Positions 39,301-63,939 of a stretch of DNA of 64,000 nucleotides are shown one piece after another. A program made the position numbers and the translations under genes. The stretch covers positions 11,842,001-11,906,000 of the forward strand of contig NC_135257.1 in assembly GCF_964204865.1 (NCBI RefSeq), given 5' to 3'. Numbering within the stretch: position 1 is the first letter of the stretch; each line of letters opens with the position of its first letter. The notes below the pieces were generated by a model. The model was not told where the DNA came from and ran no database searches. It worked only from the letters and a program-made list of their open reading frames with translations. This DNA is from Styela clava (lineage: Eukaryota).

Positions 39301-42300
39301 GGCTCACTTGAGCGCCGCGCGCCCAGTTTGAGAACCATGGTGTTACGTAATCAATGCTATCTGTTATGTACTTGGACGCCTAAGGGGTGAGTGTTATCTA
39401 CCGGCGCTCAAAATTCAACAGCGTTGTGACAAAATCGCTTCTTATTTCCTATTGTTATCTACTACTGGAAAATCAGCTGTTACATGGGGCGGGTATTCAA
39501 GTACCGGCCCTTATTTATTTTCATGTTCTGTTCACACGGGCAGCTATTCAAACGAGCCCTCAATCAAGATCGGGCGGTAAAACGAGCATATACGGTACTT
39601 TATTATTCAAATCTACATTTCACCAGCAAAGCAAGTAATGAAAAAAAATCTAGCTGCAATAATCTTTTATAGCTGCTTGTAGTGATAAATAAATTACCGT
39701 ACATAGTTTCATAATGCACTGGTATAAAATGCATTTGAAATATTTTCATCAATGTCAGATCGAAACCCATAATTTAATTGCTGGCTCCCGACTCCTGCTC
39801 GCTTGCCCGTTTGATCAGTAGATGTGAGATTAATCAAGAGTGTGAAAAACAAAGAAATTACCTATAAGCTCAACCTTCTTGGACTTTTGACTAATCCATT
39901 TATTTGCTTTAAGAAAAGATTTTCCACAGGTTTCTGATTGGTAGTTGCAACAAGACTGCAAAACTTCAAATATTTCTGCATCGCATTTTTCCCATCCATC
40001 CCCTAGTAACTGACTGAGTGAATCCCATATGACTGAATCAAATATGTCATTTGAAACCTGCAAAATAGTGGTGGGAATAACTGAGAGCAGAACTTACAAG
40101 CGAAATCAACGCTTATTAATGAAATTAGATGGGATGAATGAAGATGAATTTTAGCCAGTAGGCGTATTTATTAGTTGTTTCGACCTGTGAAAGCTGAACA
40201 GTATTTCAAGTTGTAGGGGTACTCGTTGTAGGGGTATCGGAAGAATTTCCTTAAAAACATTAGTTATAAAATGAAAAAAAGTTCTAAAACTAACGTCTTT
40301 TTCTGAAATTGTAAGTAATCAGGGATATATACCGTAAATCAAGAAATGAGAGATTCCAAACATTCAATACATCAAGTCATTGATAGTTTATGCATCTTAA
40401 AATGGAGCAAAGCTACTAATTGTATCAAACTTATTCAGTTGCTTTGAGATTGCATCTCTTTAATAATTACCAAAAGTTTCAGAGGTCGAATTTGTCCTGT
40501 GAGTAAGACCGAGGCGTGTATAATACTTGTAGATAATATTGTAGAGTTTGCCTGAGATACTAACTAGCTTAGGTAAACTCTAAGATAAACAAATAAATAT
40601 AGATGCAGTTTCATATCACTTGAAAGGAATATATAAATTAGATATATCTCTATGTACCTTCTGTATTAATTCTTTCATTCCATGAAAACAGATCTGCCTC
40701 AAATATGATTTGAAATTGCTGTATTTCATCAGTCCATCAAACACAGTTTTAACAGACTTGGGAGCTTTTTCAAGTTTGCATGACTGGATAACGGCTAGGT
40801 AAGCAAACACCTTTCCCAGAAGAATTCCTTTTTCACCCTGTGAAGAATGATGTCACAAACAAATTACTTTTCCATTTTCTACTCATATTAGTTGAAGTGG
40901 GAATACTAGATAGCCAAATGATCTGGGTATGTAGTGTATACAATGGCGCGAAACATACCATGGTAGTGCTCGTATTACAGACCTGTGATAATTCAAACAT
41001 ACAAATAGCCAAAAGCCAAAACAGCACCCAGGTCATTTGGAGCATATACAATGAGAAATATAAATTTTGTGCATCCTTCGTGTTCGAGCTTCAAATTAAA
41101 AATTTTCGTTATTGTAGAAGTAATCAAGAAATTTATAAATTTTAAGTTGTCTACTATAACAAGTGCTAATAGATGCATAGCTTCATTAATAAACCGTGAT
41201 ACCTAACAGATCCAAATGATGAAATACACAATTCTGAGTTGATAGTATTTACATTCATAAAGAGAATGAGTATTTTATAGTTTCTTACATCATCAAGAGT
41301 GAAACGTTAAAAGCATAACGATTTGGTGACTAACAACAGAAAATAACTTTTCTCTGGCCAAGTTTATAGCTGGATAAGGTGGTACTGAATCGCAATAGTA
41401 ACTGTCAGAAACCGCTACAGAAATGGGTACTCCTGTAGTATGTGTACCAGGTTAGGGTTAGGCCATAATTTTATCCCGATTTCCTTATTTTAGTTTTATT
41501 ACAAGTTCGGGGACTGTCTGTGTTAGCCAAGTGAATTTTCCCCCCTGCCCATAGGTTTCAGTCGCTATACACAACTTGATGTAAAATAGGCGAACAAAAT
41601 TAGTTGCCTCCGTATTGGTACACATACTTCTGGAGCGCCCAGAAGTGTCATACTATTACAAAAAAATGTCATATCTCTTATGTCTTATGATAGCTATACA
41701 CTCTGTAAAATTTATTATATGTATTCTTACACTCCCATCCTTAGATGATTTCAGATTTTCTTCAACTAATTTTAGGACTTTTTGAATTGTTGGATCATCC
41801 TTAACTTCGAGTTTTTTAAGAAGATGAGTGAGTGCACAAGAAAATCCAAGCCGAGAAGCTTTTCTCTCAGATGCAAGTCCATGAATTAATCTCCCTATTG
41901 CATATTTAACATCAGCACACCAAATATTGTCCACGTCATCCTTGGAATAGTAAAAAATATATTATATATTTGTTTTATACAATTCTTATACGCACGTTTC
42001 GCTTTGAACGAGGCAGCCACTGATATCTAACAATGTGTAAAAAGCTCCTCTTTTGATTTGGAATCATCTCTGATAAGATTTATTGGTTGCTGAAACATAT
42101 ATGAATCCAAGTGTTCATCAAAATCAAAACTGTGTGATAGCGGAAATAATTTATGTGAAACGGTAATTGATAATGAAATAATGGTTTGAAATAACAAGCA
42201 ATACAGAAATAATTGTAGAACTCGTTATGCGTAGATGTTCATTTAAGATCATTTATGGATTTTCCGAAAAACCAAGTCACCAGTCAGCTCTATGCATAAG

Positions 42301-43025
42301 TCATTATATACTGAAGTATGCATTATGTATAATGGTACCGGTAATAAAAACATGTGGACAAATATTGAAATTGGAGTGTTCACAGGTTTCCCGTACCTTT
42401 TAAACTAAATTTGCAGTGGGCAAAAACTGGCGAAAAGTTTAATGTACTAAGCAACTAAGCCTATTCATAAATATTTACTGAAAAACTTACATCAGGGACA
42501 ACGTGACGGTTTTGACGTTCTAACAAAATCAGAACAATCTTTTCGGATGCTGAAATTCTTGTTTTGTCGTCGGGAGTTGAAAGCTTCCAAAATAAAGTCA
42601 AAATTTCGTCTCTATCTGACTTGTCGGGCTTCATACTTCCATTCGACAGTTTCAACCCACAGCTTATCGATAAAAAATTTGGTAATTCTGTTACGGTATG
42701 TTGATAATCGAAATTTTGCTTCTTTTTTAATCCTCTTACAGCCTTGGTCTTACAAACTTAGTTAACGGTACGGTATCTCTCGGGGCTTCGGCTAAATCCG
42801 AACCAACAATACCAGAGCGAAGAACCTTCAATGCCTTGAGCTTCGAAGTGTGACACCACACGTGGAATCGAAAATTCTGGTAATACTAACAACATTGCCA
42901 AAAGTTTTTACTCGTGTTCAAGTGTAAAAATATGATAAGAATTTGAATTTTTGCGAATAATTTGCAACAAAGTCTTACATACATTTAGCAGACAGAATAC
43001 ATCGTTAGTGTACGATACTCACCAT
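9316..43025 (-). CDS. MYBBP1A: Myb-binding protein 1A (Pol5/DNA pol phi family nucleolar protein), multi-exon
   Basis: Phase-consistent exons, 5'->3': [43025-43023 ATG-only, tentative], 42748(or ATG 42634)-42491, 41940-41731, 40837-40658, 40057-39862, 38674-38439, 37499-37321, 36952-36779, 36480-36371, 35069-34921, 34041-33855, 32923-32756, 32075-32038, 31808-31683, 30953-30854, 29420-29272, 28654-28538, 27871-27639, 14979-14791, 14100-13972, 13383-13308, 11372-11206, 10720-10553, 10051-9945, 9796-9680, 9401-9316(TAG). Motifs: LFWKLS..DDKTR..A, KYAIGRLIHGLASERKASRLGFSCAL, HPRIHP, WVEVIIETILSMLSQ, an acidic tract, MDDEAMMRIDNVLAEVF and a Lys-rich C-terminus. Confidence 0.9.
11710..13293. mobile_element. 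Foldback (palindromic) non-coding element of 1.58 kb
   Basis: 11710-12526 is the reverse complement of 12547-13293 apart from indels, with a ~20-bp spacer. The A-rich tract is mirrored by a T-rich tract, and the subterminal motif GGCCCATCGTTGTCA is repeated. Flanked by AATAAC on both sides. Confidence 0.85.
13588..13811 (-). mobile_element. tRNA-derived SINE
   Basis: Pol III B-box GGTTCGAATCCC on the minus strand (13740-13729) with an A-box-like head and a non-tRNA body. Related body fragments occur at ~34228, ~35203 and ~37958. Confidence 0.7.
15483..15699. mobile_element. Merlin-like MITE copy with a degenerate left end
   Basis: Aligns by eye with the 8298-8752 and 41426-41639 family and ends in gggagtacc. 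Confidence 0.7.
19417..19621. mobile_element. Merlin-like MITE
   Basis: Termini ggtactcc...ggagcgct. Perfect 8-bp TSD CATATTTT. Confidence 0.8.
22377..26424 (+). CDS. Ankyrin-repeat protein with a long disordered C-terminus, nested antisense in a MYBBP1A intron
   Basis: Exons 22377-22467, 22852-22931, 23365-23511, 23950-24042 and 24748-26424(TAA) are in phase. Ankyrin motifs: YPIHIAASHG, TALHQASRFGH, PLHVAATYGQ, TPLHYASSEG, GADPN/GANPD. Confidence 0.85.
24173..24415. mobile_element. Degenerate hAT-like MITE
   Basis: Termini gagtggttcccaaac and gggaaccactg, with ggcccg subterminal motifs. TSD is poorly preserved. Confidence 0.55.
29540..29997. mobile_element. hAT MITE
   Basis: Termini CAGGGGTGGGTAA and TTTGCCCGTCCCTG. 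TSD ATATATAC/ATATTGAC. A second 3'-end fragment lies at ~30578-30658. Confidence 0.65.
30263..30328 (-). ncRNA. Box C/D snoRNA candidate, copy 1 (predicted guide for the 28S Am equivalent to yeast Am2946; SNORD29/snR71-type target)
   Basis: Sense to the MYBBP1A intron. 8-bp terminal stem with one G-U pair, C box ATGATGA, internal hairpin, guide AACTCAGCTCAC, D box CTGA. Confidence 0.75.
32333..32669. mobile_element. hAT MITE
   Basis: Termini CAAGGGTGTGC and GCACACCCCTG, with GGCCCGCG subterminal repeats. TSD GCATAGAC/GCAAAGAC. Related fragments at ~2570-2700 and ~31026-31150. Confidence 0.75.
32963..33244 (-). mobile_element. Helentron-associated non-autonomous element (HINE/DINE-1-like)
   Basis: subTIRs ACTTATCGAT (32991-33000) and ATCGATAAGT (33233-33242), adjacent partial inverted repeat (33217-33228), (GACA)n microsatellite, and terminal hairpin TCGGTC-GGA-GACCGA (32974-32988). 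Confidence 0.65.
34339..34404 (-). ncRNA. Box C/D snoRNA candidate, copy 2
   Basis: Minus strand reads ACTGGCAT G ATGATGA TATCTA TTGTCAT ATTACTG ATGACAA CTCAGCTCACA CTGA ATGCCAGT, with a perfect 8-bp stem. Confidence 0.8.
34480..34684. mobile_element. hAT MITE adjacent to snoRNA copy 2
   Basis: Termini CAGAGCTCTTCAAAC and GTTTGGAGAACACTG. Perfect TSD ATCTAAAC. Confidence 0.75.
35278..35343 (-). ncRNA. Box C/D snoRNA candidate, copy 3
   Basis: Identical to copy 2 except for one substitution in the internal hairpin loop. Confidence 0.8.
35426..35643. mobile_element. hAT MITE adjacent to snoRNA copy 3 (same insertion as 34480-34684)
   Basis: Same termini. TSD ATATAAAC/ATCTAAAC and the same downstream flank CTTGCTGAGCAA. 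Confidence 0.75.
35766..35869. mobile_element. Short degenerate Merlin-like MITE
   Basis: Eroded TIR (ggcgct..aagta..aaccaagatg). Flanked by the direct repeat CACAGATG. Confidence 0.55.
35914..36242. repeat. Diverged tandem duplication with a ~165-bp unit (2 copies)
   Basis: 35914-36077 and 36086-36242 share tgatttttgct..gtgacttttt..aaactagaa..gctaaattttg..aacagtgaattta. Confidence 0.75.
38213..38278 (-). ncRNA. Box C/D snoRNA candidate, copy 4
   Basis: Core identical to copy 2, located in MYBBP1A intron 38438-37500. Confidence 0.8.
39063..39595. mobile_element. Tc1/mariner-type non-autonomous element
   Basis: TA|CCGTATTTGGTCGTTTT ... AAAACGAGCATATACGG|TA: imperfect TIRs with a TA TSD. Confidence 0.65.
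41426..41639. mobile_element. Merlin-like MITE
   Basis: Termini ggtactcc...ggagcgcc. TSD CAGAAATG/CAGAAGTG. Confidence 0.8.
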
Positions 43026-43686: not shown

Positions 43687-46000
43687 TTATTGTAGCGATA
43701 CGCAACATCCTACGCTGTAGTCGTAGAACTTGTCACGTATCGCGAGCTTGTGGGCGTTATAAATACGTTCGAGGTCTCTTTCTTCAGCAACTGTGTCGAA
43801 ATCTCGCACATAGATACGTACCTGAAGAAAGGGAAAAAAATTATCAACTCAATTAGTATGTACAGACATATCTTATATATATTCAATATTCTAACGTACT
43901 TGTCATCAAATTCGACTGGGGTTTAATTCCTACAATTCAATCGGTGAAGATGTAGACAAAACAGAAACTAAGTGAACTGCCCAGAATTTACTACCTCGGA
44001 TTCTCAAGACCCCGCAAACCTAAAATTAAAACCTAAATTCAGTTTAAATCCATTTTAACGGACTGGCTAATATTCATTTGTTATGGAGGGTGAATTTTCT
44101 TTTGTATAATGACATGTCTCGTATCGGTAATATTGGCTATTATATTATCCATAACGCCACTGAATAAGAATTCAAATTTACTAAACCCAAAACTGATCAA
44201 TTTTAGACTAACATGCTTATCTTGTATTTATAAAAATAGGAAAAGTCTTACTTTTAGTGTATCCACTGAGCATTTATCATTTTCTCTTAAAATTACAAGT
44301 TTTTCGATAAATTTCGTTGATATGAAGGCGTTTATCTTCAAATAGTACAATGATTTGCAGTGCTCAATTAATGCTAGAAATTGGCTATCGAACACCTCGT
44401 AAGTATCCGGTAGATCTGAAATTTAAACAAAGTGTAACAAAAAAAAAATCATTTTTTCTAAAATCATAAAAACTCAATGCAAAAAAGATGCACAGAATTG
44501 TTGTGTACCAAGTGTAATCTTTTCCAATGTGTTACTGTAATGAGGCAGTATGGTTGAAATTGTAGGTCCGATTTGCCAATCTTGTTCAGCAAAGTAGCAT
44601 CCATCAAATGTAATCTAAAATGATAACGAAATAAAAGTGTGAAGTTAAATATATTCATGCATAATCAATCAATTTACGCGCACGTGAATAATGAAACGTG
44701 CCAAAAAACAAAGTCAGCTTTGTATTTGTTCATACGATGGGAACCATTTGTGATAGAATACAAGGGGCATGATGGGAACAGTTTTTCGATAAAATACAAT
44801 GGAGATGATCTTGCTTCCAAACTGGCTTTTTCTTTCATTCAGTTTCAGATTCATTTCGCTGTTTCTTACCTGTCTTAGCGGTATCTGCGGGCATAAAATT
44901 CGAAAATGTTCTTCTGAGCTCATGACACGTTCAAATTTCATATCAACTTTACAGTTGGGACATTTATTTCGAAGGGCGCTCCAAAATTGTCCCTGAATAA
45001 TTTGGTAATGAGGATCGTAAGCGTGTACTTTGATGTGTAGCCGTTTTAGTGAATCATGAGAAATGTGTTCCGCTAAAGTTTCCAAAAAATCTTCCGAAAT
45101 ATAACTGTAGTTGATGAACAAATCTCGCAGATTCTTGAACTGTCGCATGCAGTCGACAAATTCTGTAAACAGAAAGATGGGTCTTCTGTTGAAAAAGAAG
45201 TCTTCCAAATCCAAGTATGTCACGGTATCACCCATTTCATATCCAAGTGAAAACAAAACTTTGTACCCATCATTCAAGCACATTTTTGCACTTCTTAAGT
45301 TGACTCTTTCTAAAGTATGCTGACCTTTGCAAAAATACTTTGCAAGCCATGTGGTGAAGTCTTCTTGAATGGAGTTCCATTGTCCACGATCTAGCTGTAG
45401 TCCTGGAATGGAGAGTTCTTCCAGTCTCGCCTTTTCTTTTATGAGAGTGATGAAACATACTCGAATAGCCCTTTGAAACTTGCGACAGACACTCGATAAT
45501 GCGGGATTATATAATCGAAATTCCAAACGACGTAGATATTTTCCAAATATTCGGACATATTGAGTAGCATTTCGATAAGGAAGGTGCGTCGAATCTCTTG
45601 GATCACGCCCTGAAAACCTAAATGACTTGACACGCCACAAATTTCCCGTGTGCCTCATCACTGTATACCATCTCTTGCAAACGTACATTGCACTCGGGCG
45701 ATGCCTTTCTGCAAGGTGAACAAAAATGTGCTCTAATATCACGTGAGGAACAGTCGCCCATCCGTGAGGATTGTCTTCATTCGATAAATCGTCGATGGAA
45801 GTCATAGATTTTGACAACGTTTTGCCTGTTCCGTCTGACATGAGACTTCCTATATCAAAGTTATTAGAGTTCCGTCTCGTTTTGGCCGACGTAGCACTTT
45901 TGCTTGAATCCAATTTTAATTTTTCTGAGTTTGATTCAATTGTTTTTAATTTCGGTTTTTTCGGCGGTACGGGACCATCTTCTTCCTCGAATTGTATCAT
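43687..46000 (-). CDS. FBXO39: F-box only protein 39-like (F-box + LRR-like)
   Basis: Exons 46000-44870, 44614-44509, 44415-44252 and 43821-43687(TAA). F-box WATVPHVILEHIF...VCKRW, plus YVRIFGKYL, IKVHAYDPH, FERVM and a C-terminal RIY..EE..L..IY, matching the remembered vertebrate FBXO39 along its length. Confidence 0.85.
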
Positions 46001-47044
46001 TGTTGAAATAAATTAGCGGTGCAACGTCTTACTTCCCAAACCAGACAAATTTTCTTATATGCAAATATTTGTAATCAAGTCAGAAATTAAAATCTAAGAC
46101 GGGTATAATTGTTGCGTCACAATGTGGTAATATTGAAAACACAATAGTTGGCATATTATAGAATCGACCTTGAAACCCAGAAAATTTCTTTCCCTACTTC
46201 ACTACTACAATTTTGTATGTCTTATTTTTTACGTGTTACGTCCTTGAATTATTTATTTTCTTGCAACCTGTTCAGGCATATCCCATCAAAAAATAGTGGT
46301 AGTTGACAACAGCGTAGTGACTAGTCTTTCCACCCACTTCTCGGGAAGTTTATATTGCAATTAATCTAAAACTCGAAAAAAATTGAAAGTCACTGAATCT
46401 CAGAAACATAGAATGACAAAACTACGAAAATGATTCGATTTTCAAATTCATGATTGAATTTCAATATTACGTCACAATTTATTTGATGCGAGAAAAACCA
46501 GTTATTGCCATGTTTATCGGACGTGATATTCAGATATTTGCATTTTGAAGATTTCCTAATGACATTTCGGTTTCCAGTTTGAATGACATAAAATTGTATT
46601 GCAATCGTGTCGTAGGCTATGGACAATTACGATCATGTTCCAAATTAGATTTGCGCAGATTCTTTGCACCACTGATGGACACAAATACTTGACACTGAAT
46701 GGTATATATCCTGACTCTGATTGGCTCAGATTCCGGGCAATGTTTGCAACCTAGGGGTCACCAACTATATATATATACGGGTTGATAAAACTAATCTGGC
46801 TAGCAGATGTGTATTACATATCCGATAAACTCATACGTCAGAAAAATAATTTAACACCTTTTTGTGGTATTCGTTTCAACTGATCACGGGTTAATGCCAT
46901 CCTCGATGACGTGCCAATTTTGCACTTGCAAATTCGGAATACTTCGCCGAGGCGTACTAGGAAGTAAAAATACAATTTCAAATCGTTAAATAGTAGTTCG
47001 CCCTTGGAATGTCGAGGAAAGAATTGGTAAATGTGGGTGCGAAC

Positions 47045-47734: not shown

Positions 47735-49814
47735 CAGGGGTGGGCAACCTTTTTCGGCTCGCGTGCAAAATCGACTAAATTAAAAGACAAAATTCTTGCC
47801 GACCAAAATTTTTGAGAACATACTACTGCCATTCTTACAAGTATATATCGAGTGCCTCGAACAAATGAAAACTAGTCCTTCAAACAGTGAAGACATAAAA
47901 TGAACGAAAATGAATTTATTCACCTTAAAAACAATGCCTTGCTACTTTCTAATCAAAAAATACACAATAATAAACCTTTTGAACATGTACAGACAGATTT
48001 ACTAATCTGGAAAATATCAGTCCGATAAATAGATTTAATTACTTTTCCCGTTTTATATCAGTGAGACTTCTGCGTTTATATTTTGTAACTTTCAGAGAAA
48101 TACACGAACCACTTGTTTTATCTTTCAGGGACTTAAATAAAGTTCATCACTGACAACAGGGATTCACAAGCATAATGTAGATGAAAACATGGAGGGTAAT
48201 GCAGTTGCAAAGTTTTTCAGACACGAAAAATTTTCGGAAATGGAATACCAAGCACGCAATAATTCGTTTTCTGCACTTCTCTCTTGTATTCCCTTCTCTA
48301 ATCGCATTTTTCAATATTTTCCAACTCAACTCTAGGTTTAATGAATTTTTGCTTCCAAATTGAGCTACTCAGAAAGTCAATCAACTGCAATTCAAAATTT
48401 CTCCTGGTCTATCGATAAAAAATTTTGTAGGTTTAGTTTCTCCATTTTTATATTGTCCGCAAACCACATGAACTTTGCGGTCTCTTCAAGTTCTCTGAAT
48501 TTTGAAAATCTTGTGACGAACTGCTGCTGCTCACCAACTGACTTGATAATGTTTATAAATAACACCTGACAGATTTGAAGATCTGTTCTGTCATCACTTT
48601 GGAGATCCCAAATATACCTCTTGAGGTTTAAAGAAATATTTAAAATTTTTATCTGCAATATCTTTCTCATGTATCATGCTGGGGCGCCATCAGTTGTAAC
48701 AGACACTTGCATATTTCGGCTCCCGTAGTACGCTCAGGCAATGTTAGAAGGTCAACCATCGCTTCACGTATTTCGCTCCCTTTACAAAATCGAGAAAATA
48801 TTACCAGCCTAGCTGATGATGTTATATCTGTACTTTCATCAACACAAATAGAAAAATATTTGCATGAAGACAAATCCTATGTCAACTGCTGAGTAATATC
48901 ACTTTCCTACTTAAAGATAAATCTTTAATGCGTTGAATAATATTCTCTTTTTCTGGAAAATTGTCGAAAAGTAACGGCGCACACTGTAATCAAACTTCTT
49001 TAATATAATCTCCATCACTAAGTGGTTTTCCATGTTGCGCAATTACCTTTAATTAAAATTTCGAAACTGGCAGCAACTAAGTTGGTAATGGATTTGCCTG
49101 ATATGAAGTACATAAAATTATTAGCTTGTTTTCTCGCTTTGCTGATATTACTACTGATTAATTCTCTCTTTTTCTCCTCAGATTTATTGTTTGTATTACC
49201 ATGAACACTTGCAAAATGCCTTTTTACAGACGATGTTCTACAAACAATCGTTTAGAAACAGAAAATTCATGAAGCTGTGTTTTTTCTCAATTACACCAAA
49301 GCTTTCAGTCCAGTATTATTGGAATCTTCTGACATCGCCAAATAAACGAGCTTACTATGCTGATGGTCCTGACATCATTGAATCTGTAGACTGACGGCAA
49401 ACAAGAAACGTACCCAAACTATTTACAAAGAGGCAGTACCAAAATACTACTGCAATTAAATTTTAATAAACCTTTAACCCATCTGATGTCACTTTTATTT
49501 TTTCAAAATCAATTTATAACAGTAAGTAAGTAACTTTAACCAACATGAGCTGTACAACTTCATAAATCAAGCAGAAATTATGAAAAAGGGTGGCACAGAC
49601 GAACTATACTACGTAAGAATGTAGCCAATTTAAATACTGCGACTTTCTCTACAAAATTTCTCGAGAGCTCACTCATTTGTTATGCCATAGTAAATATTTT
49701 GGTAGCAATATGTCATGGACGGACAAAAAGAGTTCAAGGCAAATGATTTCGTTTCCGAGGCCTCGCTCGCGTGCCGTTAAAATGGGCTCGCGTGCCAGGG
49801 GTTGCCCACCCCTG
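47735..49814 (-). mobile_element. Defective hAT transposon (Buster/SPIN/GTF2IRD2-like transposase pseudogene)
   Basis: TIRs CAGGGGTGGGCAACC and GGTTGCCCACCCCTG. TSD AACTAGAA/GACTAGGA. Frameshifted transposase remnants including YFSICVDESTDITSSARLVIFSRF and QQQFVTRFSKF. Confidence 0.85.
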
Positions 49815-51468
49815 GACTAGGACGTCATTTTGCTTGTCACCTATGTATAGTATGTGTGAACACAGATAGACAATCCCTAGACACCGTGTGCTCATTAAAG
49901 GGTCAATAAATTTATGGTGTACGTGCTGTTGATATGATTGTGTCGTAAAGAATTATCATGTATTATCTTTGGAATAAGATCTTTGCCCCTTGACATTTAT
50001 TATTTTCATCTGCTACTCTGATGCGTTCATCAATCCAAACGAATAATTGTAACAGTTGATCAATTGGGGGCCTCGTCGTGAATCAGTCGCAGATTGATTC
50101 GCATTAGATTGTTCCGTACTGGACTCTTCACGAAATTCGTAGTCGTTCAAAAAGTTGGTTTGATAGCCAATGTAGACATCAGTACGACGAAAATACTATT
50201 TACCATTCGCTGCCTATTCAAACTCCTCGGCTTGAAAAAGCACCGTATCAACCTGTTCGCTGAAGTGTGGCGATCTCGAAATAGTAACTTATCCGGGTAT
50301 TTTCTCGATAGCTTTCGACATAACACGGATATTTATTTGCCTGCGGGCACGAGAAATGTAATTTAGAAATCATGTTTCACTACCTTTTGACGGGAGTTTT
50401 TTCAGCGTATACGTGTCTCGAAAGGTTCGCATATTAAATTGAATGTAGATTGGCAGCTTAGCGCGACCTGTGTAACAATATTTGTGGTTCGGAGTTGAGA
50501 TTACTGTAAAGCTTAATAAATATTCAAGAACTATCCTGTCGTTGACGCACTAGATTCTGTTTATCTCAAGTGGTGTGACAATAACACGATAATTAGTACC
50601 AATGTGATGTATCACAACCTGGCACCAGAACTACCAGCAAATTTAAATATATATTCTATCTACGAATTGAGTTTTAAACAAAATGTTATATATAATATTA
50701 AACCCTGATGATATGCCGCAGCAGTTCTTAGATCGAATTAAGAATGTGTTCAAATTATCATCGGTGTCTTGTACTGGACTATATATGTTGTGTTGATCGC
50801 GTGCTCATATAATATTATACAGACGCAAGTCTATTTCCTCGTATCGGTGACATAGAACAATAGTAATTTGATGCATAAATTGTGCATGCAAGGTACTACA
50901 TGAATGGGAATATATTCTGTGCGCTCGTAAGCAAGAGATTATATTCATTTTTCAATGAGAAACAGGTAGATTGGGGTTTTCTTGTGGTTGAATCTGTTTT
51001 TTATTTATATTTCCTCCGTTCTCTGATACTGATTGTGAGTTGGCTACACGCTGCAATTGCTTCTGAAATGAACCGTATCTGCTAGAACAGGAAACAGATA
51101 TCGTACAATAGACCTTTTCTGATTACACGTTAGCAGCAGAATATAGGCCGAATTTTGCTTGTCTGTGTTATGTAGTGTCTTGTTAGCATGCGAATTAGTC
51201 TTTGTCTGATTGTTATTTACGGGCAGGTTAATGTATCATAGTGAAATATATATTATGTGTCCACAATGCCATGTTTCTAGTTCAGGAGATAGGAATGCTG
51301 AAAAAAGAATTGTTAACTGATTGTAGTCGTTTTGATGAAGCTGGCTCGTGACAATGTCGCATTTTTATCAAATTAAATTATACATAATTTTTGTTCATTT
51401 TTTAAGAATATATATAAATAGCTGTATCATTTTCCATACTTAGAGCTGAATACGAAAGTATCTCAATT

Positions 51469-54400
51469 ATGGGAAATGCTTTGGAAGCCTCAGCTGGTAG
51501 AGCCGAGGTGATGATTATTGGTGGTGGCCCCACTGGTATTGGCGCAGCTTACAGGTATCACTTTACTTTTTTATTATTATGGAGGATGACAATTATTAGG
51601 CTCTTGCTTATCCCACTTAAGCACTGTACAATTGACAGATTTAAACATAATAGGCGTTAGGCCTACTTAAGAATGTAATGTGTATACCACATCTTTTCGC
51701 AGGATACTGTGAAAGTTTGAAATGTTGGCCGCATAATATTTAGACCTTTTTTAAAAACCGTGATATTCAAGCCAAAACTGCCCGACATATACATATATTT
51801 ACCAATGTAACATACTGCAAAAATACTATAACAAGCATGTATGTAACAGTACATGAAAATATCCACCTCAAAGTATCGATATTTTCATGCCGCTATTCTT
51901 CGTTTCAGGTTGGCTCAACACGGCAATCGAAATTGGATATTATTGGATGCCGAAAAGCATCCAGGAGGTTTAGCGGGATCTATTAAAACCCACGAAGGTT
52001 TTCGCTTTGATCACGGGTACAAAACATTTTGTAGTCGATATGATTATTTAGATCAACTGATAGAAGATTGCTTTGGTAACCCACCTAAAAAACTAAAAGA
52101 AAAGGCCCGAGATAACTACGTATATGTTAAAGGACGAATGATCAGGTTCCCCTTACAAAACAATTTGTCCGGACTTCCAGAAGCGGATCAAATAAATTGT
52201 GCTTTAGATTTGGTTCGCGCTCGCATAACCGATAAAAAGCAACGAGTGACAGAAGACGTCATAAATGAAACTGACAAAGAAAACCTTGAACACAGGGAAG
52301 ATGAGTCATTGACAGAAAACAGCAGCAGTCCTATTGAAAATACAGCTGTGATCGGCGAAACCTTGAGAACAATAAGTTTAGAAAACAACGAGCAAAGAAA
52401 CGGTGAACACGTTGAGACCTTAGATGAGTATCTTGTGCGTAAATGGGGCGAAAGTCTATGTAATATATTATTCAGGCCTTATATTTTCAAATCATTTGCG
52501 TATCCGACAAGTAAACTAGTAGCAAATTGGGCTGAAAACAAAATACCACCACCACAACTTGGCGATGACATAGAAAGAATTTTGAACAACGAACAACGTG
52601 ATCCCGGTGAGTATACTTTGGGCTATTTTTTCCAAAAAAACTAAGATCGTTAATGCAGGCAATTTGAAAACAAGGCCTTTGATAACATTGAGAAATTTAA
52701 CTAAAAAAAGCGCAAATTGTTGTTTCCAATTGCCTACATGCTTACCTATTTGAAGACACCTAATTCAATGTACCTTTTTAGCTGTTGATATCGATTCCAC
52801 CACTTTGTATCCATCTAAAGGAGGTTTGGTATCATTTTGGCGAAACATAACTCGACATTTACCAAAGAACAACGTTCGATTCAAAAGTGAAATAATTGAT
52901 CTTGATATTGAAGAAAAGATGGTCAGAACAAAGGATGGGCTTGAAATACAGTATGTTAATTGAATTATAATTTTGCATTGAAGCGTTTGAGGAAAACGGT
53001 TGGTAAGTGTGAATAGTACACTATAAACTTAATGATTTATGTGAAATATGGCGTTCAAATTGAAAGCATTGTCTACAGTAGTCAAAGGTATTCAGACGTT
53101 GTCCCTTATCGATTCCGCAAAGTTTATTTTTATATCATGGCGCTAGGTTTAGATCTAACTCAACATGGCAACCAGGATATAAAATGTGATTAACTTAAAT
53201 AGGGCGTCTGCAGCAGACAAGGGTATCGGAATAGTGATTTATGCCCAGCTTTTACGTCGCAGACAGGCTATAACACATTTGTTAACATAAAGGCCGGATT
53301 TAGACGATAAGAGACCCATAGGCCTATTTGCGAGGTCCCCCACCAACAATGACGTTATAAAAGACCTTAAAAAATTGACATTGTATTGTAGGGAACAATT
53401 ATGTAAAAACACCATACAAAAAATATAATGAAAAAATGTGTAACTTTGAAGTAAATCCTATCCTATAACAATCCCGTGGAAAATTACTCATCTGTAATCC
53501 CAAGCCTTTGTCACAAACTTCATGAGACGTTACTTTGACTGTATTTTTGTTTAGATACGATACCCTAATAAGCACCATGCCGCTTACATCATTACTAGAA
53601 CTTGCTGGCCGAACAGACCTTGGAGCGACACTGACCCATTCATCTTTGTACATTGTATGCTTGGGAGTTCGAGGCATCAGCCCACACAGAGATATAACTG
53701 GTAAATATGTAGTATATAGGCGTTTTGTTGGCTTTTGATATGGTTTGCGATAATTGTGATGCAAGATGGCACATCTAAGCAAAATACCACATGAGCGACA
53801 ATGATATTTTTCTCCGCTTCCGTGAAAGTAAGGTATACATGAATAAAAATGTTTTATTGTGCAAACAAAACACATCTTTGAGGCCTCGGATAATCTTTAA
53901 AGTTTATTTGCAATGCTCTTAGTGCCCCAAGCATGGTTCTATATATAATTATTCGAATTAGAGAGCTCTGAACTCCACAATCGTGCTGGTTCTGTAACCG
54001 CATGAGCAACCGGTATGTAATAAAATAAAAAATAAAATATACGAAACTGAGACATTAAACCTACAATTTCAGTATAATTAGATAACCAATACCGATATTT
54101 GTAGTTGATAAAAGCACGAACTATATATATATATATAGTATAGGTATAGTTGTCCCTAGACTATAGAAAGTGAATCGTATTAAATCATTAACCGGAAGTT
54201 CTACAAAAGTCAATAGGCTTATATTAGTGCATCGGTGAAAATTAATTTAGACTTTGGGAAAAACAAAATAATCTCAGGTGCCCATTCAAATGCCGAATTG
54301 GATCATATTTTTGATTTGACCTAAATTAATCTTAATTTAAATTTTATTCAGGGTGCATTTACTTTCCGGAATCTGATACCGTTTTCCATCGAGCATGTAT

Positions 54401-57221
54401 ATTTTCAAGTTTCGATCCTGATAGTGTACCACGTAAAGATGAACAGATTCCCACAATGCGACTTGCAAAAGAAACAGATGAGTTACAATCGAGTGGCAAT
54501 CAGTGCGGTCCGTATTGGTCTCTACAAGTGGAAGTGAGCGCGGGCCCACTCAAAACCGTATCGGATGCAACTATAAGTGAGCTACTTCATATTCGGCAAT
54601 TTGTATTTCAATTTATATAGTGCTGTTTTTCCGTCAACACCTGAAAAACGGCCGACGATTTTATCAGCACTTTTTCCACCGTTAGGTCTGGTTCACGGTA
54701 TTGCTCTGACCACAACTTGTTGAAATATGAATTTAAAGCTTAAAATCCGGTATGTTTTCTTGTATGGAAATCGAATTACGTTGGTAGAGAAATCAGTGAA
54801 TGTTACCACACATTGATAAATAAATAAGTAAATATTTTGCACAAATTTAATTTCAACTATATCGAATTACATGTTGACAAGGATGTGTTGTGTATGAAAG
54901 TTGAGGTAAACAGCCAGCTAGGGCTAGCTTATGTAACATAAATATATATAGATTTAACTTAATTCAAATCAAAAAGCTTACAAACTATTGTCAAAACAAC
55001 TGGGGTCACCCCCCAGCGACCAGTTTTCCAAATATGTTTTCAATTCATATATTTTAGTCACTTATTTTCGAAAACTAAAAATAACTATGCATCATCAAAA
55101 CATCGGGGGTTTCCGACGACCGCTTTTAAAACCCTAATAACTGGAGTGGATCAACTATAACTCTTCTATTTTAAATTCGCCGTTCAATTTTAAACACCTC
55201 CAAATTGTATGGTATATACTTTCTGTGAAATCATTTGTTTCCAATAATAGCTAAGTAAGTTGGTATAACAACAATGTTCAAATTAGGTCCTTAATATCGT
55301 TCGAGGCATGTTTGTTCCATAAACTAGACTAGACATTCGTCTTTATGTGAAGATTTTTGCTGTTAATTTCGGTGGTGAGAAGTATAAAAAACCTGATTAT
55401 CGGTTGTCACATTGTTTATTGTCGATATACATGCGTTACTGTGCCGCATGGAGTAATTATTAGCTTAAAATTCAGACTCAACAAGACCTCTTTGTACTAA
55501 TCTCGTATTTAACGTAAAGTCATATACAACTTTTCAGGTAAATAGCCCGGCAGGCATTGCAAATTTGGTATCTGATATCCCTTGATATATATAGTAGGTG
55601 CTTGGTACCAAATCGAAGATGGTTTAAAACAAAGAGATGTTGAGCAACATTATAATGGCCCGGACGTGACGTGATTTTGAAGCACCTGACAAGGAGATAA
55701 CTTTCGTTTTTATTTAGTGATAATGATCCACGGAATCATTCTTATATATCGAAGTATAAAGTCGTCACATTCTAATTCAATTATTACTTCACAGTGGATG
55801 AAGTTGTACGAGACGCTTGTTTGGTCGGATTACTTCGACCCAACGATGAAATTGTCTCGATCCACATGACTGAAATGACGCATGGACAACCTTTGCCAAC
55901 TATAGAAAGCGAACAGAAAGTATGTATATAGGTCATATATTCACACTTGAGTGAACAAATTCATAATATAACATGAGGTTGATTCGCAAAGTATTTAAAA
56001 CTCATGATAACACATTGACGTGATGGATCTTGGACGAACTAGAAGATGTTAGTTTGCTACTTTTTATTCGACACCAAGTGTACGTGTGGGTCGTTTTGTT
56101 GAATTTATTAGCGTTGTTATTTTTGTATCAAAAAAAATCTTCAACTATTGTAACAATCAATTTTTGAATACCTAAAGATGGAAGAATTCGCTTACAGGTC
56201 CTTCATCATACATGACCTTCTTTTTTCTTGGCCTATATCTCCACATATTTCAAAATGAAAAACAAAACTTAGAAATTCAGTTTAAATGATATTGACTAAA
56301 TTTCATTGTGTCACAAAAAACGAGTGTATAAGAACAGTTAACGTTTTCCGATACTTAACTTTATAACACTGCAGTGCAACTCGGTACAATCGTTCCACGG
56401 AGTAAACTGGTTGTCAAACAGTATAATGTCACGAGATTATTCGGCAGTGACATTGTGATGATTTAAAATTTAGTCATTTGCCTTTTTCATTCTGGATTCT
56501 TGTAATTATTTGTTCTCATTGTGACAAAGTATGTGACAATACCTTTATTAAATGCTTCCGAGAACTGATCGTGGCGTTCGAGAATTTTGAAATATATTTA
56601 GTGTACCTCATTTAAATTCATATATGTATATATATGTTTTAATTGTGATTCGATATTGTCCAACACGTCAATAGAAGAAAGGTATGCTTATCTGACATAG
56701 AAGAAATTTTCATTAACAGTTTTATATCAGGTTATCGGCAATAATCATGAAAGGAGTGAAGATACTACAAAAATATCTTAGTGCTAACGATGTCATATTC
56801 TTGCGTTAAGATTGATGAGGCTCTCATGTGGTTACAAGAAAGAGGAATTTACAGTCGAGGAAGATTTGGAGCTTTCAAATATCATCTTGGAGATTTGGAT
56901 CATTGCTTCATACAGGGTGTTGAAGCAGTTGATCACATTTTGAAGGGAGATCTCGAACGATGTTTGTGGTCGTCTGCGAACGACATCAATCGTCGAGGAA
57001 AAAGCAAAATCGAATTTCCGTTGTATAATAATGGTATTTCTGGATTCAAGGACGGCGACAGAATAACAGCTGGAGACGTGAGAAATGCGATTACCCGGGA
57101 GCCTGGTAGTTCAACTTCATCGTTTACATCTACCACCTCACCCTCGAGTTCTAGATCGCTTTCTTCTTCACATCATGGAGACGGAGGTCATTCCGGCGAT
57201 TCTAGTGAGGATTCGAGTTAA
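51469..57221 (+). CDS. Divergent eukaryotic UDP-galactopyranose mutase (UGM/GLF)-family FAD protein
   Basis: Exons 51469-51554, 51909-52606, 52782-52950, 53555-53700, 54352-54576, 55795-55919 and 56811-57221 are in phase. Motifs: IIGGGPTGIGAA, PGGLA..EGFRFD.G, FPLQNN, YDTLISTMPL, IYFPE..VFHRA.IFS, GPYWSLQVEVS, SRGRFG..KY..G..DH.F.QGVEAVD. Confidence 0.85.
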
Positions 57222-60015
57222 TGGTGGTAATTGAACATTCGAAATATATATATATATACAATTTTATAGGATATATTTTCACGCCTTCGCTCTGGACAAA
57301 ACCTAAAACAAGCAGACACTATAAATTATTTTCAAAATTGCATTTGTTTGATTTGACGTAAACTTTTGGTTTTCTTTAATCCAGAAAAACCGTAATTCAA
57401 CTCGAGCTGATGGGATGCTGTAGGATTAGCAACCCCATCTCAAGCTTCCTGAGTTAATCTTTTTGGCCAAACTTTGCCTCCCTTTTCTCTTAACAATCTC
57501 AACCTCTCACTATTATCAGTAGCTCATATGATCAGATTTTAATCGAAAGACTCTTTTTAGATGCCAACAACCCTTTGCAGGCTTCAATAACATTGCAGAA
57601 TAGCAGATATGCGTTTATGTACAAAATATATGTGTACCACTGCACGTTTTCAATGAATTTTTATTTGTTTTAAAGTTTATCAATGAATTTTAGTTTTTTT
57701 TTTATGTGACTGGGAGTTTTCTCTGTACTCTTCTCTGATGAGCAGAAATGTTTTTTACATTTAGATCGACAAAAATAACCAGTGCCTTCTATATATATAA
57801 TATATATCAAACACACTTAGGAATGCTTGTTATGGTGACAATGATAAATGCAAGCGTAATGAATGCTCATGTTCGAACTTCCAACAGCGGATTCGAACAA
57901 CCGGTTACTGATTTTCATATAATTTAGTTGGCATTAAAAGAAAATATCACAACGCAAAGCAAATGGAAGTAGGGGACTGTTTGAAGCGACTATTATGTTT
58001 ATAACAAGAGGATGCACATTGTGCATTTATGATGGCATAGTACAAAATGTGTCCCCAGCCAAATAGGGAAGTCCGATTTCAAAGATGTATAGGCCTACCT
58101 TGAATAGAAGTTTCACCTGCTTATGTAAGAAAAGTTATAAAGACAGAGCTTTTATTCTTTGCTATATATTTGTCTGCATTTAGCTGGCAACGCGACTTTG
58201 CTTAAGAATTTGTATGCGCTATTCTACATGCTAATTACCGTACAAATAACACATATTGTCAAGACTATTCACACTGCAGTAACATATTATTTTATTTATA
58301 TATTTGTAAAGCACTACATGGCATATATAGAATAAAACATGAATATTGTGATTAACATTATTTAAGGATTATTGAGATCTGCGGAAACGCTCAATTTGTG
58401 TTGGTTTGGAAACTGGCATATACGCAGAATAATAATCAAATGTGACTAGGAACATAAGTAGGTTCTCTCAAATATTAAATACAACCGGGACACAGTAAAA
58501 GAATCGTCGCAGGTGCTCAATCATCTGGACCAGAATGGAATTTGTTGAACAGGCCAGTAACTTGATATGTGGCTAATACTGTAGTAATCACAGCTAGCCT
58601 TTGTGCAGCGCTGATGCCATCGTACAACCGGCAAAAAGTGACCAGAGGAAAGTTTCAATAATTGCACTAACCCAAACTAAGGCGCCATTTTTAATACATA
58701 CGGCAAATTGAAACATAAATATGGTATTTTCTGGAGTAAATAATGTACCAGAATATAAGATTACATGTAGGCTATGCAGCCACGTGGCAGTCACCCAAGC
58801 CGTACTTGCTGTTCGCATATAACCAGGCGTGAGCTGGGTTCTCTAAACAGGTTCTCTGCTTAATTGTGAATTTCCTGGTTCATGTAGAGATCGGGACTTG
58901 ATGACACTTTTTGATCGAAACTCACGGAACTATACCTATTGCAACTATGATCACGCGTAAAGTTGGTAATCTGTTCGATAAAGATAAGCCTCACAGAATC
59001 CTTTGTAACACCGGAAGTTAAAATCCTGAACGCGGTATCCAAATAACGATGTTTCAATATGTGAATCAGATTAACCAGCTTTTCTTAATATCAAACTATA
59101 GTAGTAACCTAAAACTCACGCTTGCTTAAAACTCTTCGTGTAATTAGTATTAAGATTTTGACGTAAATACGTAAAGTCAGCGTATATTTTATGTACCGGT
59201 AAGTTCATTTGAATTCAAACAATGCATTGTTCTCGCTGTGTTTTAAAGCATGATTAATTTAACGAACCCGCAAGTAATAATAATTATAAATACAAATTAA
59301 TTTCCGTACAAAAAGGTGCACAGGAGTTCACTTGTTTTATAATTGTTAGTAGCGGTCTGGTTATGACAATCCTTCCGCCCGATCATCACTCTCCAGGTGA
59401 ATAATCATTTGTTATGTATTTATAGTATATTTATTGCGTCATTATAAGTTGATATTTCATTCAAAAGTCTTGCATATAGACAGTTTTTTTTTTCATGCGA
59501 GGATTTCTCTTCAAGTGATTATGTTACGTAAAGAAGTTTAGCAATAGGGAAAGCATGGCGTATACTTTCAATGGATATAAAGCTTGTTGTATTTGGTATG
59601 TTAGATTGTCAGTTATATGAAGAATTTGAATCGAACATTCTGCTTTGAAAGATGCGAGGAGAATATTGCGAAACCTTAACACGCTGAAGACACAGCAAAC
59701 ATTAAAAACGGGTTCTTACATCCACAGCGTTTTTTTTTATAATCGCATATTAAAAAATATCATTCAGCATTATGTATAGACGTCCAGCATGTGACTAACA
59801 ACAACTTTTTTAAAACATCCAACAATCTATAATTTGGATACAGAAAGCATATTTAGGATAATCAAACATAAATATTAATTTAATATATTTTAGGCGGTAA
59901 AGTTATAGTTTACTTTTCATTTTATATTAAATTATAACTATTTGTTTGTAATATAGATATATATCTCTACATCAAGTTAACTAGTTTATATTTGTGAATA
60001 AAAAATTCCTTCCAA

Positions 60016-63000
60016 ATGATTTTGTATAGCATTTTCATCTTGCTGTGCATGTCGGCATGGACTATTTCAGGCTTCAACCTAGATATGAATGTGGGTTATT
60101 TTACGTCTGATAGCGGACGACTTTACAACGAATCAAGCCCACCTGACCCTAAAAATTTGAATCATAATGTAACATCCAAATTTTTCGGTTATACAATGGC
60201 TTTCTATCAAGAAAGTACAGAAGGAAAAATAGCGTGAGTATAAAACTAAACGATACTCCCGAAGTATGTGAACCAAGATGGCGGACACCGGAACGTAGAA
60301 TGTGTCCCAGGTTAAGGTTAGGCCATATTTTTAGGTACAAATACTACGGTAGTCACTTGGCTAGTCCCCGAACTCGTAATAGAACTAAAATAAGGAAAAT
60401 TGGAATAAAATTATGGCCTAACCCTAATTTGGTACACATACTACCTTCTGGTGTCCGCCATCTTGGTGCACATACTTCGGGAGCGCCAACTAAACTAAGC
60501 TTTCATTTGTAGAAACACCTAATATTTAAAAGAGTATGAAGTACGTTAATTTGTAAGAAGGAATGATACGACAAACGCGATAGACACTTTAGGTTAAGCC
60601 AAAGAAATCAATATATAAATATATCACAAATAAATCACAAATACTAACCCAAAGTGAAATAAACTAATCAAACGAAAAAACAATAATGAAATTGTTAACA
60701 TCTGTTGAATTGGTTATTATAGGAACTAAAAGATATCCCAACTTCCTATCAATCTTATTGTGAAAACAATTTTTTCTCTGGAAATTTGTTCAGACATGAT
60801 AGTATCTGATTCGATAGCATGATGTGGGTAAGGTTGTGGACTGTGGTACATAAGCATGTTAAATTAAGGGCAACCGGTAGGAAGCGAGGAAGTTATAAAG
60901 TTTTACATCTGTTGCGTCCAAACAGCTAGCAGTTGAAGCTACATGTTATAGTGAAATTCGGTCATCTAACAAAAAGTTTCCAAACCACCTCTTCATATGT
61001 AATATTACCAGGAGAGGGTGAATTTGAATTTAATCCATATATATTCCTAATTCCGACAGCCTTATTATTGGTTCATCTGGAAGTAAAGTTGATCAGACTG
61101 ACTCACAAACAAACAGCACTGGTAAGTTATTGAAAATATCCTTTCAAAATAAAATTTAATTTCCGGGGTCATGCAAGCTTCAGTTGATTGAGAAATCATT
61201 TATTTAAGTACCGATAATAGCTTTTTTTCGAAATACAATATATGAAGATATTCAGTTATTTTACTTGAGCAAGCAACCAAAATTTGAGTTGTAAACATTT
61301 TCACGTTCACTGATTGACGTTTGATAAATAACGTTCACATACAATACTGTTTGCAACAATTTATAGATATTTTGAGACGGATTTGAGCTGACACCAAATT
61401 CACAGGTAAAGATATGTCTACATGCACACTTTCTTGATCTCATCTCATAGAATGAAAAAACGCCAAAGAATCTTTAAACACAATGTGTTTGCAGTTAAAC
61501 TTTCGTTTTCCTGAGAAGTGGTTTGTCACACGGCGCTACTTTCGATTATTGCCAGTCATCAGTAATTGTTGTAATCGATGACGACATAAGTTCGTTTGTT
61601 TATTTTTATTCAAATTTATAAATTCGAACTGTCTTCCTATATATAATGGTGAATCATCACATACGTACATGTTGAAGGCATCCGCAAAATTGTCTTTGTC
61701 ACACCAAGCTTCTATATTTATTGGAATGCTTTTTCTTTCTGTCCCAAAACGGAAAATTTCAACCGGCTTTACTCCATGATTTCCCCGTTCACTTTTTATT
61801 TTATTTAAAAAAAAAAAATTTATTTTGATAGGGAGCAAAATTATTTCAATCAAATGAATAGCCTGATTTTATGAATACCGGTTTTGTTAATTAATTACGA
61901 AAAGAATGAAATATAAAAATGAGGAAATATGAATTCTACGTAGTCTGCTACGTAGGACTACCAACCATTCTATATACAAAGATCAAAGACATTTGTCCGC
62001 GGAGACCACACCTCGATAAATCAGCCCTTCATTTTTGCCGAGCTTGCATGAAATTCTCTCAAATTTTGGCTAATCAGGGATAGTATTGTTACGCAATAGA
62101 TAGTGAAAAAAATAACTTTCCATTATTATTGTCAATAATCTCAATTGATTGTCCAATTTTGTATTTGGATATTAAAAAACTCATTCTCGCCAGTGTGACG
62201 TCTAATTAAAAAAAGCAATTCCAATTTATATTGTATGGGTACTTTGACATCTTAATTTCCCAGAAAAAGAACGCTTATCATAGAAATTAGATTTTATTAG
62301 GGTTCGGAAGCAAGTAATCCACAAACAAAAATGATTTACTTATTATGCAACAATACGATGATAGTATCTTACATCCTTGTATTGTGTTTATATTATTATT
62401 ATTTATTAGTATAATGAATCAGACGTTGGTGCTGACGTTCTTGCGTTCTTGCATTATTTCCAAATAGGATATTGTGAAGAATTCACGAATAACCAGTCGT
62501 TCGTTTTAGTAATAGTTGATTGTTTTTATGGAGCTTCACGATGGCATTATATTGTAAAACACGTGATTTGCTATGTAAACCTGATTGAGCCAATGAGCCA
62601 ATATTACATATTGATTTCAGTATATATATTCTTACATACAGAAGCTGCAGCAAGTGTTCATTTATGTGGATTTTCGACTTCTTTATTTTTTGATGAATCA
62701 TCCAGTGAGTGCAATATGTCCTATCCCAGTGGAACATTATCAGAAGATGGATTTGGACAAGTGGTTGCAATTTCTCAAGATGGAAATATGAAGGTATATG
62801 ATGCAATGATGCGGACTCGCACTCGAGATTTGTGTCTAGGTTCACACTGAGGAAAAACCATAACCATAGAGAATGTATAATATTAACAGAAATATCTTTG
62901 TTTGTTACTCCGTGCGTTTTGGCAATATTTTTTAAAAAATTTGTACAAAGAGACCACATATTAAATTGCAGAACTTCTAAAACAAAGTTCGATTCCATGC

Positions 63001-63939
63001 GCATAAACAGTGTTCCCAAACATATTAAATAAGACCGCCATCAGAATCACAACTAAATTTAGAATATCAATAGTGAATAATAATCAAACACGTCATATAT
63101 GTGGTGTTAGAAGGAGTCGAATATAATATCCATTCAGACATATCTTTGAAATTCCAAATATGTCTACATTCAGGCATGCTCACCTACGAAAAAACAAGTA
63201 TGTGACAACAATTACTATTCTCCTGGATTTTGTTACGTATCTTCTGATTCCGGATCATCCTGGACAAAAGATGCGCAGACTGATCAACTACGTAAAACTT
63301 ACCTAATCTGCTTTTTTGGGGAATGGTGTAAATTAAATCGGTGAAAAATTCCAAAATAAAAACTAGAAAACATCCTAAAAATTGGAAAACCCTGTATTTT
63401 TTCGATCAGAATTGATATCTAAACTTTAAAATCCGCTAAGCATGTTTTAAAAATTCCTTAACTAAATTTGTTTGCATATTTTTTTCGCAATGTATGACAA
63501 CCTGACATTTCAGGTTGTCCAGCCGGGCACGTTGACGTGTTGTTCGTGATAGATGGATCAAGGAGTGTAGAGGAAGCCAATTTTCAAATCGTAATTGCCT
63601 GGGTGAAGAATGTCACAAAAAAACTCGATTTAGAAAGCGGTCATACCAGTGTTGGCGTTGTTCAGTATTCTTCCTACAACCCGGGGTTTGTAATTTGTAA
63701 TCAGCGAAACTATATATATGTATATACTAAATAACCATTAATAAAAAATTTGACAAAAAATGAAAAGTAATCGATAAATAACAACAGTTGTTTTCTGATT
63801 AAACTTGAACGTTTGTTATTCATACCATATAAATTAAAATAGTATTATTTTGCGCTGTTTCAGACAACCAATAAACGATCAAACATACATAAAGACGGAA
63901 ATCGAAATAGGACAGGAAACTAATCAGACTTCCTTCGAG
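60016..63939 (+). CDS. Integrin alpha subunit with an I (vWA) domain, 5' part (continues beyond the window)
   Basis: Signal peptide followed by FNLD. FG-GAP-like FFGYTM / LIIGS / GFGQVV, then ACSP...GFCY and the MIDAS motif DVLFVIDGSRS..VGVVQYS. Exons 60016-60233, 61060-61121, 62642-62793, 63174-63291, 63514-63685, 63864-63939. Confidence 0.88.
60252..60487. mobile_element. Merlin-like MITE, palindromic variant
   Basis: Same family as 5054-5288. Perfect 8-bp TSD AACTAAAC. Confidence 0.8.

Follow-up and report, generated by a model that had tools for sequence, protein, structure and literature searches.

The 64,000-nucleotide stretch of the Styela clava genome analysed here (contig NC_135257.1 of assembly GCF_964204865.1, positions 11,842,001 to 11,906,000; hereafter the window) carries on its forward (+) strand the gene LOC120346149, which occupies window positions 51469-57221, consists of seven exons separated by GT-AG introns and encodes a protein of 619 residues in a single open frame. 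The conceptual product is identical to database protein P0121, labelled 'uncharacterized' at its source, and the Styela protein exists in two database versions that differ at residues 86 and 466. This gene is part of a tunicate-wide lineage descended from eukaryotic UDP-galactopyranose mutase (UGM) that is subject to strong purifying selection and has a dismantled active site, and as far as we searched such a lineage is undescribed.

The features of the gene all lie on the + strand and are described relative to Aspergillus fumigatus UGM (AfUGM). The coding part of exon 1 (51469..51554) opens with MGN, a possible myristoylation site, and contains GxGxxG at 51520-51537. Exon 2 (51909..52606) contains PGGLA at 51961, the altered histidine-loop equivalent DHGYKTFC (52009..52032; G62 to Y66, H63 to K67 and F66 to C70), an acidic domain-2 insert of about 57 residues (residues 140-197; 52240..52413) common only to the close relative P0002, and WAENKI at 52528; its further Styela equivalences, with AfUGM numbers second, are R96=R91, Q112=Q107, I221=N163, F225=W167 and K240=R182. 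The flap II equivalent lies in exon 3 (52782..52950) with VDIDSTT at 52784, where W204 has become V263 and N207 has become D266. Exon 4 (53555..53700) is defined by the gene model and the spliced runs, and GCIY spans its junction with exon 5 (54352..54576), which holds C368 at the W315 position (54354), Y370=Y317, H379=Y326 and R380=R327, the HRA motif at 54387 and the long-type insert. Exon 6 (55795..55919) carries HGQPLP at 55881, with Y419 replaced by Q473, and exon 7 (56811..57221, to the stop) carries SRGRFG at 56853 and GDLDH at 56889, comprising R501=R447, Y507=Y453, G510, D511=N457, L512=Q458, H514 and C515=S461. The end of exon 7 encodes an acidic, serine-rich tail of low model confidence, within which a motif conserved in ascidians (57063..57113, residues 568-584, core AGDVRNAITREP) may form a short helix at residues 570-577, predicted with low confidence. 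An earlier sequence-only reading had quoted these altered and retained motifs for the interval 52009..56940; each was located, GxGxxG lying upstream of that interval, and the A. fumigatus motifs it had set against them agree with the PDB chains and fall into the register it had given.

The frame and splice sites had been described as intact, and the gene is one open frame over seven exons whose six introns have all been removed at the predicted sites in each of four runs, one from each of four studies. Introns 1 and 2 are joined in two further runs, one run represents unspliced DNA, and run X14, from another organism, gave no cover of the gene. Because none of the runs is recorded as RNA, expression was read from these spliced joins. 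A low-depth alternative joint from exon 5 (54576) to 55538 in one run is possibly a minor splice form, and a long 3' untranslated region (57222-58349) in spliced contigs has variant letters far denser than those in the coding exons. At the 5' end, a likely trans-splice acceptor lies at 51402..51406 (AG at 51405-51406), where contigs of runs X6 and X13 have loose 5' ends, and the extra 5' letters at 51402 in spliced contigs from two runs match an element with 405 genomic copies. This element is probably the Styela spliced-leader exon, trans-spliced onto LOC120346149. Since a GT directly follows only one of the three copies examined, many of the copies may be retro-inserted or degenerate; copies are often paired, some 5-6.5 kb apart.

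At the level of overall sequence and predicted fold the protein belongs with eukaryotic UGM. It matches AfUGM at E 1.5e-88, and an AlphaFold2 model built from 113 sequences has a mean predicted local distance difference test score of 84.1, with residues 1-8 and 556-619 below 50. Compared with eukaryotic UGM, the model aligns over 499 residues (Z 47.6, root-mean-square deviation 2.4, 33% identity) with template modelling scores of 0.88-0.91 depending on the target, so the comparison with AfUGM proposed by the sequence-only reading predicts the three-domain UGM fold. Bacterial UGMs and protoporphyrinogen oxidases reach Z 28.6 at most (the best bacterial UGM), and after the mutases the nearest fold neighbours are oxidases, protoporphyrinogen oxidase and renalase among them. 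An identity as a flavin amine oxidase or protoporphyrinogen oxidase, as the PF01593 label would have it, was rejected: the canonical fungal protein P0146 also matches PF01593, and the corresponding Z is 27.8 against 47.6. The protein has no match to the bacterial-type GLF profile PF03275 at E 0.01 or to TIGR00031; because P0146 also misses PF03275, that miss separates types of mutase and not activity. It also falls below every NCBIfam cut-off, and a search of the ESM Atlas returned canonical UGM-like clusters only.

To assess the ligand site we chose 17 contact residues listed in Table 3 of PMC3624792 and took their numbering through an Aspergillus felis protein as proxy; the residue equivalences rest on sequence alignments. 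Styela keeps five of the 17 contacts (Q107, Y317, R327, R447 and Y453). Ten tunicate-type proteins keep between two and nine. Of 111 close non-tunicate homologues, 109 retain the full 17, and 117 more distant full-length representatives keep 7-17, with at least 15 in 84 of them. At positions conserved to at least 95% in the 111 close homologues, tunicates keep 8 of 22 ligand-site residues versus 81 of 121 others (Fisher P=0.009). The histidine loop G61-G62-H63 reads G-Y-K in Styela; outside the tunicates 225 of 228 sequences have His63, which is missing from 16 of 17 tunicate-type sequences and fragments, in which the position is K, T, M or Q and differs even between the close relatives P0002 and P0223. 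The galactose contacts R182, N207 and N457 are K240, D266 and D511, and in the uridine pocket (Y104, Q107, F158, N163, W167) only Q107 is identical in Styela, the others being F109, L216, I221 and F225; four of these five residues are kept in Ciona. Three of the four diphosphate contacts (Y317, R327, Y419, Y453) are kept in Styela, Y419 being Q, and R327 is K in Oikopleura-type proteins. The W315 position is C368, in a register left slightly uncertain by a one-residue gap. The contacts to the pyrophosphate and adenosine of flavin adenine dinucleotide (FAD; GxGxxG, T18, D38, L46 and R447) are all kept in Styela, in agreement with the earlier claim that FAD-binding features are retained.

The losses that had been listed from the sequence are thus real in Styela, with the refinement that those of the flap-II tryptophan (VDIDSTT) and of Y419 (HGQP) are peculiar to Styela and a single close relative, W204 and Y419 being kept in Ciona, Phallusia and Clavelina. 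As judged from the alignments, pocket erosion is continuing within tunicate sub-lineages: Styela and P0002 lack F158, W167, W204 and Y419, P0296 lacks Y419, Y453 and H460, and P0163 lacks R327 and R447. P0163 is a far more eroded member of the clade, with an MGN start and an acidic, then basic tail, which has kept His63 and lost R327, R447, Y453 and most contacts. P0296, P0300 and P0149 represent a 530-residue member whose start looks favourable for myristoylation and from which W167, Y419, Y453 and H460 are gone.

Work on canonical enzymes indicates what such changes cost. The loop G61-G62-H63 flips upon reduction and is reported to stabilise the reduced flavin (PMC3624792; PMC3322874), and UGM is described as active only when reduced (PMC7662398). 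AfUGM turns over at 523 per min, against 26 for R182K and 7.5 for R327K (kcat; PMC3322874), and the Trypanosoma cruzi enzyme (TcUGM) lost 98% of its activity in His62Ala and about 90% in Gly61Ala and Gly61Pro, as cited in PMC4192007. Single changes at these positions having cost tested enzymes 90-98% of activity, and twelve such contact changes standing together in Styela, normal mutase activity has very probably been lost, as the sequence-only reading had supposed.

It is quite unlikely that the protein nevertheless remains a UDP-galactopyranose mutase, slow but sufficient, in which the substitutions compensate one another. The whole fold is kept, as are R327, Y317, Y453, Q107 and R447, R182K alone leaves about 5% of kcat (PMC3322874), and searches of the Styela genome found no other mutase; against this, 12 of 17 contacts have changed at once. 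No canonical mutase was found in the genome with either Styela exon 2 or a canonical protein as query, and no bacterial-type mutase (PF03275), the best candidates having been scored in each case in an assembly that is possibly incomplete. Five of the eight matches to the canonical protein are LOC120346149 itself; the other three are weak and N-terminal, two of them read as unrelated Rossmann starts. The canonical GGH copy sought in the genome did not appear, and 'paralogue', the term first applied to this gene, is the wrong word: on these searches Styela has LOC120346149 as its only representative of a clade that spans the tunicates. In Ciona, two separate bacterial-type mutase genes were acquired later (PMC13390645), which fits, and does not prove, an old gene that no longer supplies UDP-galactofuranose; no mention of galactofuranose was found among 15 tunicate papers.

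The sequence-only reading had offered two alternatives to mutase activity, action on another nucleotide sugar or a regulatory role, and conservation of the pocket among tunicates separates them. We took seven tunicate proteins of mean identity 0.60, leaving out the gapped Ciona savignyi model, P0296 and P0163, and compared them with 300 random sets of seven canonical proteins of mean identity 0.61. Invariant in the tunicate set are 4 of 16 pocket positions, 3 of 7 on the isoalloxazine side of the flavin, 6 of 7 dinucleotide contacts and 153 of 422 other positions (36%). The control sets average 99% for the pocket, never falling below 81%, 86% for the isoalloxazine side, 91% for the dinucleotide contacts and 34% elsewhere. 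Addition of P0296 lowers the tunicate counts to 2 of 16 and 0 of 7. Because a pocket retuned to a new ligand should be conserved in tunicates, and this one is at background, a relaxed pocket is favoured over a retuned one, and on this comparison 'another nucleotide sugar' is the weaker of the two options and 'regulatory' the better fit.

It accordingly appears unlikely that the protein, at least in ascidians, is a pyranose-furanose mutase or nucleotide-sugar binder whose specificity has shifted to a different nucleotide sugar. Such a shift would account for six ascidian proteins in which N207 is D or E, N457 is D, H63 is K, R182 is K and N163 is I, with R327 kept where the model covers it, and for the retention of most uridine and diphosphate contacts in Ciona. 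The Oikopleura-type proteins, however, differ at the same positions (T/M, S/G, N/G and K327), additional UDP contacts are gone in Styela, and every UGM in the tabulation of PMC3322874, prokaryotic or eukaryotic, conserves His63.

Purifying selection on the gene is strong, and the gene is not decaying. Since the ratio of non-synonymous to synonymous substitution rates (dN/dS) is saturated between Styela and other species, as it is for more distant pairs, selection was measured in an Oikopleura-type pair (L015 and L016), which shows 7 non-synonymous against 71 synonymous differences over 324 codons in three exon stretches, with per-exon ratios of 0.012, 0 and 0.106. All three exon-2 variants of Styela in one run are synonymous. 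The splicing and a dN/dS far below 1 bear out the earlier description of the gene as maintained. A decaying pseudogene or annotation artefact, which heavy loss of active-site residues and two database versions differing at residues 86 and 466 might have suggested, is refuted by the selection and splicing results and is exceedingly improbable: the frame is open, splicing is exact in four studies, and orthologues occur across tunicate classes. Intron positions are also shared, that of intron 1 with both an ascidian-type and an Oikopleura-type metagenome locus and those of the later introns with the ascidian-type locus.

Features have been gained as well as lost. The MGN start is present in 8 of 9 tunicate-type proteins that have an N-terminus versus 1 of 228 others, which suggests a myristoylation signal. 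Tails of 52-125 residues, mostly acidic, are found in tunicate-type proteins, compared with a median of 25, and a 12-residue tail motif is shared by Styela, P0002, Ciona intestinalis, Phallusia and Clavelina and occurs in no other stored protein. Furthermore, the seven tunicates share 49 invariant positions whose residues are seldom seen in canonical proteins; the corresponding numbers are about 22 for fungal subsets and 5 for green-algal ones. Most or nearly all of the 49 lie outside the pocket list.

Our favoured interpretation, to which we give roughly even chances, is that LOC120346149 encodes an FAD-retaining, probably myristoylated and membrane-tethered mutase that would be catalytically dead and act through protein contacts. 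It is favoured because constraint has moved from the pocket to other parts of the protein. The predicted UGM fold would be kept and FAD still bound; without Gly62, His63 and Gln458 the reduced flavin would no longer be stabilised, and without Asn163, Arg182, Asn207, Trp315 and Asn457 UDP-galactopyranose (UDP-Galp) would not be positioned for N5 attack. The MGN start, if myristoylated, would anchor the protein to the membrane, where the newly fixed residues outside the pocket and the tail motif may provide binding surfaces.

A new redox flavoenzyme, in which NAD(P)H still reduces the flavin and, in the absence of the histidine loop, electrons pass to oxygen or to a small non-nucleotide substrate, would make the protein a membrane-anchored oxidase, reductase or redox sensor, and we regard this as possible, if on balance doubtful. 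R91, R447, Y453, G456 and H460, which we take to have an NAD(P)H-binding role, are kept in the core tunicate set, the next fold neighbours after the mutases are oxidases, and the strong purifying selection would suit an enzyme. NAD(P)H is reported to reduce eukaryotic UGMs from a binding site that is partly distinct from the UDP pocket (PMC5589893; PMC7662398), and stabilisation of the reduced state in UGM is attributed to the histidine loop (PMC3624792). A new catalytic site should be conserved, however, and the isoalloxazine side is so at only three of seven positions, or none with P0296, which also lacks R91 and H460; the retained residues, moreover, have structural or FAD-binding roles too.

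Several observations weigh against a dead, membrane-tethered mutase. Many pocket changes are conservative (Y/F, R/K, N/D), and Ciona retains most of the uridine-diphosphate half of the site (Y104, Q107, F158, W167, Y317, R327, Y419 and Y453). Within the five ascidians alone, 9 of 16 pocket positions are invariant against a background of 45%, and both sugar-binding asparagines are acidic in all six ascidian proteins, which could mark a retuned site. No variation is seen at R91, R447, Y453 and H460 within the core tunicate set. The control sets were drawn at random and do not represent clades, and 5 of the 117 distant non-tunicate homologues also keep merely 7-10 of the 17 contacts. The excess among the 49 clade-specific positions is partly expected, because the stem of the tunicate clade is long (0.86). 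As to the membrane anchor, position 6 is glutamate in ascidians (Styela and Ciona) and G or S in other tunicate-type proteins, glutamate at this position being unfavourable for N-myristoyltransferase; P0002 begins with ME, and one Clavelina isoform carries an upstream extension.

Named orthologues come from Ciona intestinalis, C. savignyi, Phallusia, Clavelina and Oikopleura, and the tunicate sequences form one clade (SH-aLRT 100; quick IQ-TREE run on 53 chosen rows) whose branching follows the tunicate groups. Its sister group was not resolved by that tree or by a FastTree analysis of 238 proteins. No other named animal occurs among the best 120 of 944 matches, and a nematode protein of 475 residues ranks low among the 78 matches listed. 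The long insert between R327 and E373 is found in the tunicate clade and also in fungi, algae and other protists, and the choanoflagellate Hartaetosiga has a near-canonical long-type UGM (P0043/P0315) that the quick tree places with algal and other protist sequences, not with fungi. On these data the gene may have come by transfer from a microbial eukaryote or, given the near-canonical copy in the choanoflagellate, may have been lost in other animals. A Carpediemonas protein of 1551 residues (P0145) contains two tandem canonical short-type UGM domains.

As far as our literature search reached, mostly outside subscription journals, the clade is undescribed. Beverley et al. (2005) reportedly may list a tunicate homologue, in which case its existence would be known and the altered site not. 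In PMC13390645 the Ciona orthologue XP_009861905.1 is mentioned solely in Table S1, where its best match is from Leishmania (E 6e-72); that study, as its analysis is set out, pursued only candidates with bacterial matches, and this protein stands outside the genes it analysed. The word 'mutase' is absent from the main text of the Styela genome paper (PMC7540406).

The neighbouring genes in the window show no pathway link to LOC120346149. They comprise a lyase-family gene at 2026-2980, argininosuccinate lyase-like by eye, an ankyrin-repeat open reading frame at 24715-26421, a DNA polymerase phi/MYBBP1A-like gene at 27600-42800 (-), an F-box gene at 44717-46012 (-) and a vWA-domain gene at 59998-63731, integrin alpha-like by eye. 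Broken frames at 48300-49300 (-) and 7112-7441 (-) look by eye like remains of hAT-type transposases and have no Pfam match at E 0.01.

In eukaryotic UGMs the active site hardly varies, and the enzymes are investigated as drug targets that are said to be absent from higher animals. In a tentative and more far-reaching scenario, which we think rather unlikely, the tunicate ancestor would have acquired a galactofuranose mutase of protist or fungal type by gene transfer, and the protein would have become a flavin redox sensor or scaffold with a lipid anchor, on which all tunicate classes still rely and which may have a link to the making of the tunic or house. The gene would then join cellulose synthase as a second foreign gene that defines the tunicates, and would be the first case of a dead or re-purposed UGM. 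These ideas are directly testable, as Ciona and Oikopleura permit knock-out and localisation and the UGM enzyme assay is routine.

Set beside known systems, the gene is distinct from the bacterial-type UGM genes of Ciona (KY21.Chr5.483 and KY21.Chr14.742; PMC13390645, PMC3494510), which belong to the same enzyme superfamily, are also tunicate, and are described as single-exon genes with a bacterial GLF domain reported from Ciona only (PMC13390645). Unlike them, LOC120346149 has seven exons, lacks a PF03275 match and is tunicate-wide. With eukaryotic UGM (A. fumigatus UgmA/GlfA, PDB 3UKK, 3UTE and 5HHF; T. cruzi, PDB 4DSG) it shares the predicted fold, and it keeps GxGxxG, T18, D38, L46, R447, G456, R327, Y317, Y453 and Q107 of AfUGM; R327 is separated from E373 by 47 residues, the spacing of the fungal and algal long type. 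Replaced relative to AfUGM are the histidine loop, R182 and N207 (both flap residues), N163, W167, F158, W315, Y419, N457, Q458 and S461; added are the MGN start, the domain-2 insert and the acidic tail. RabGDI/REP, FOXRED1 and PDPR are pseudo-enzymes of flavoprotein fold, and the Styela protein may resemble them in the way it works, as an FAD-enzyme fold kept for binding or assembly, an analogy that implies no homology beyond the Rossmann fold.

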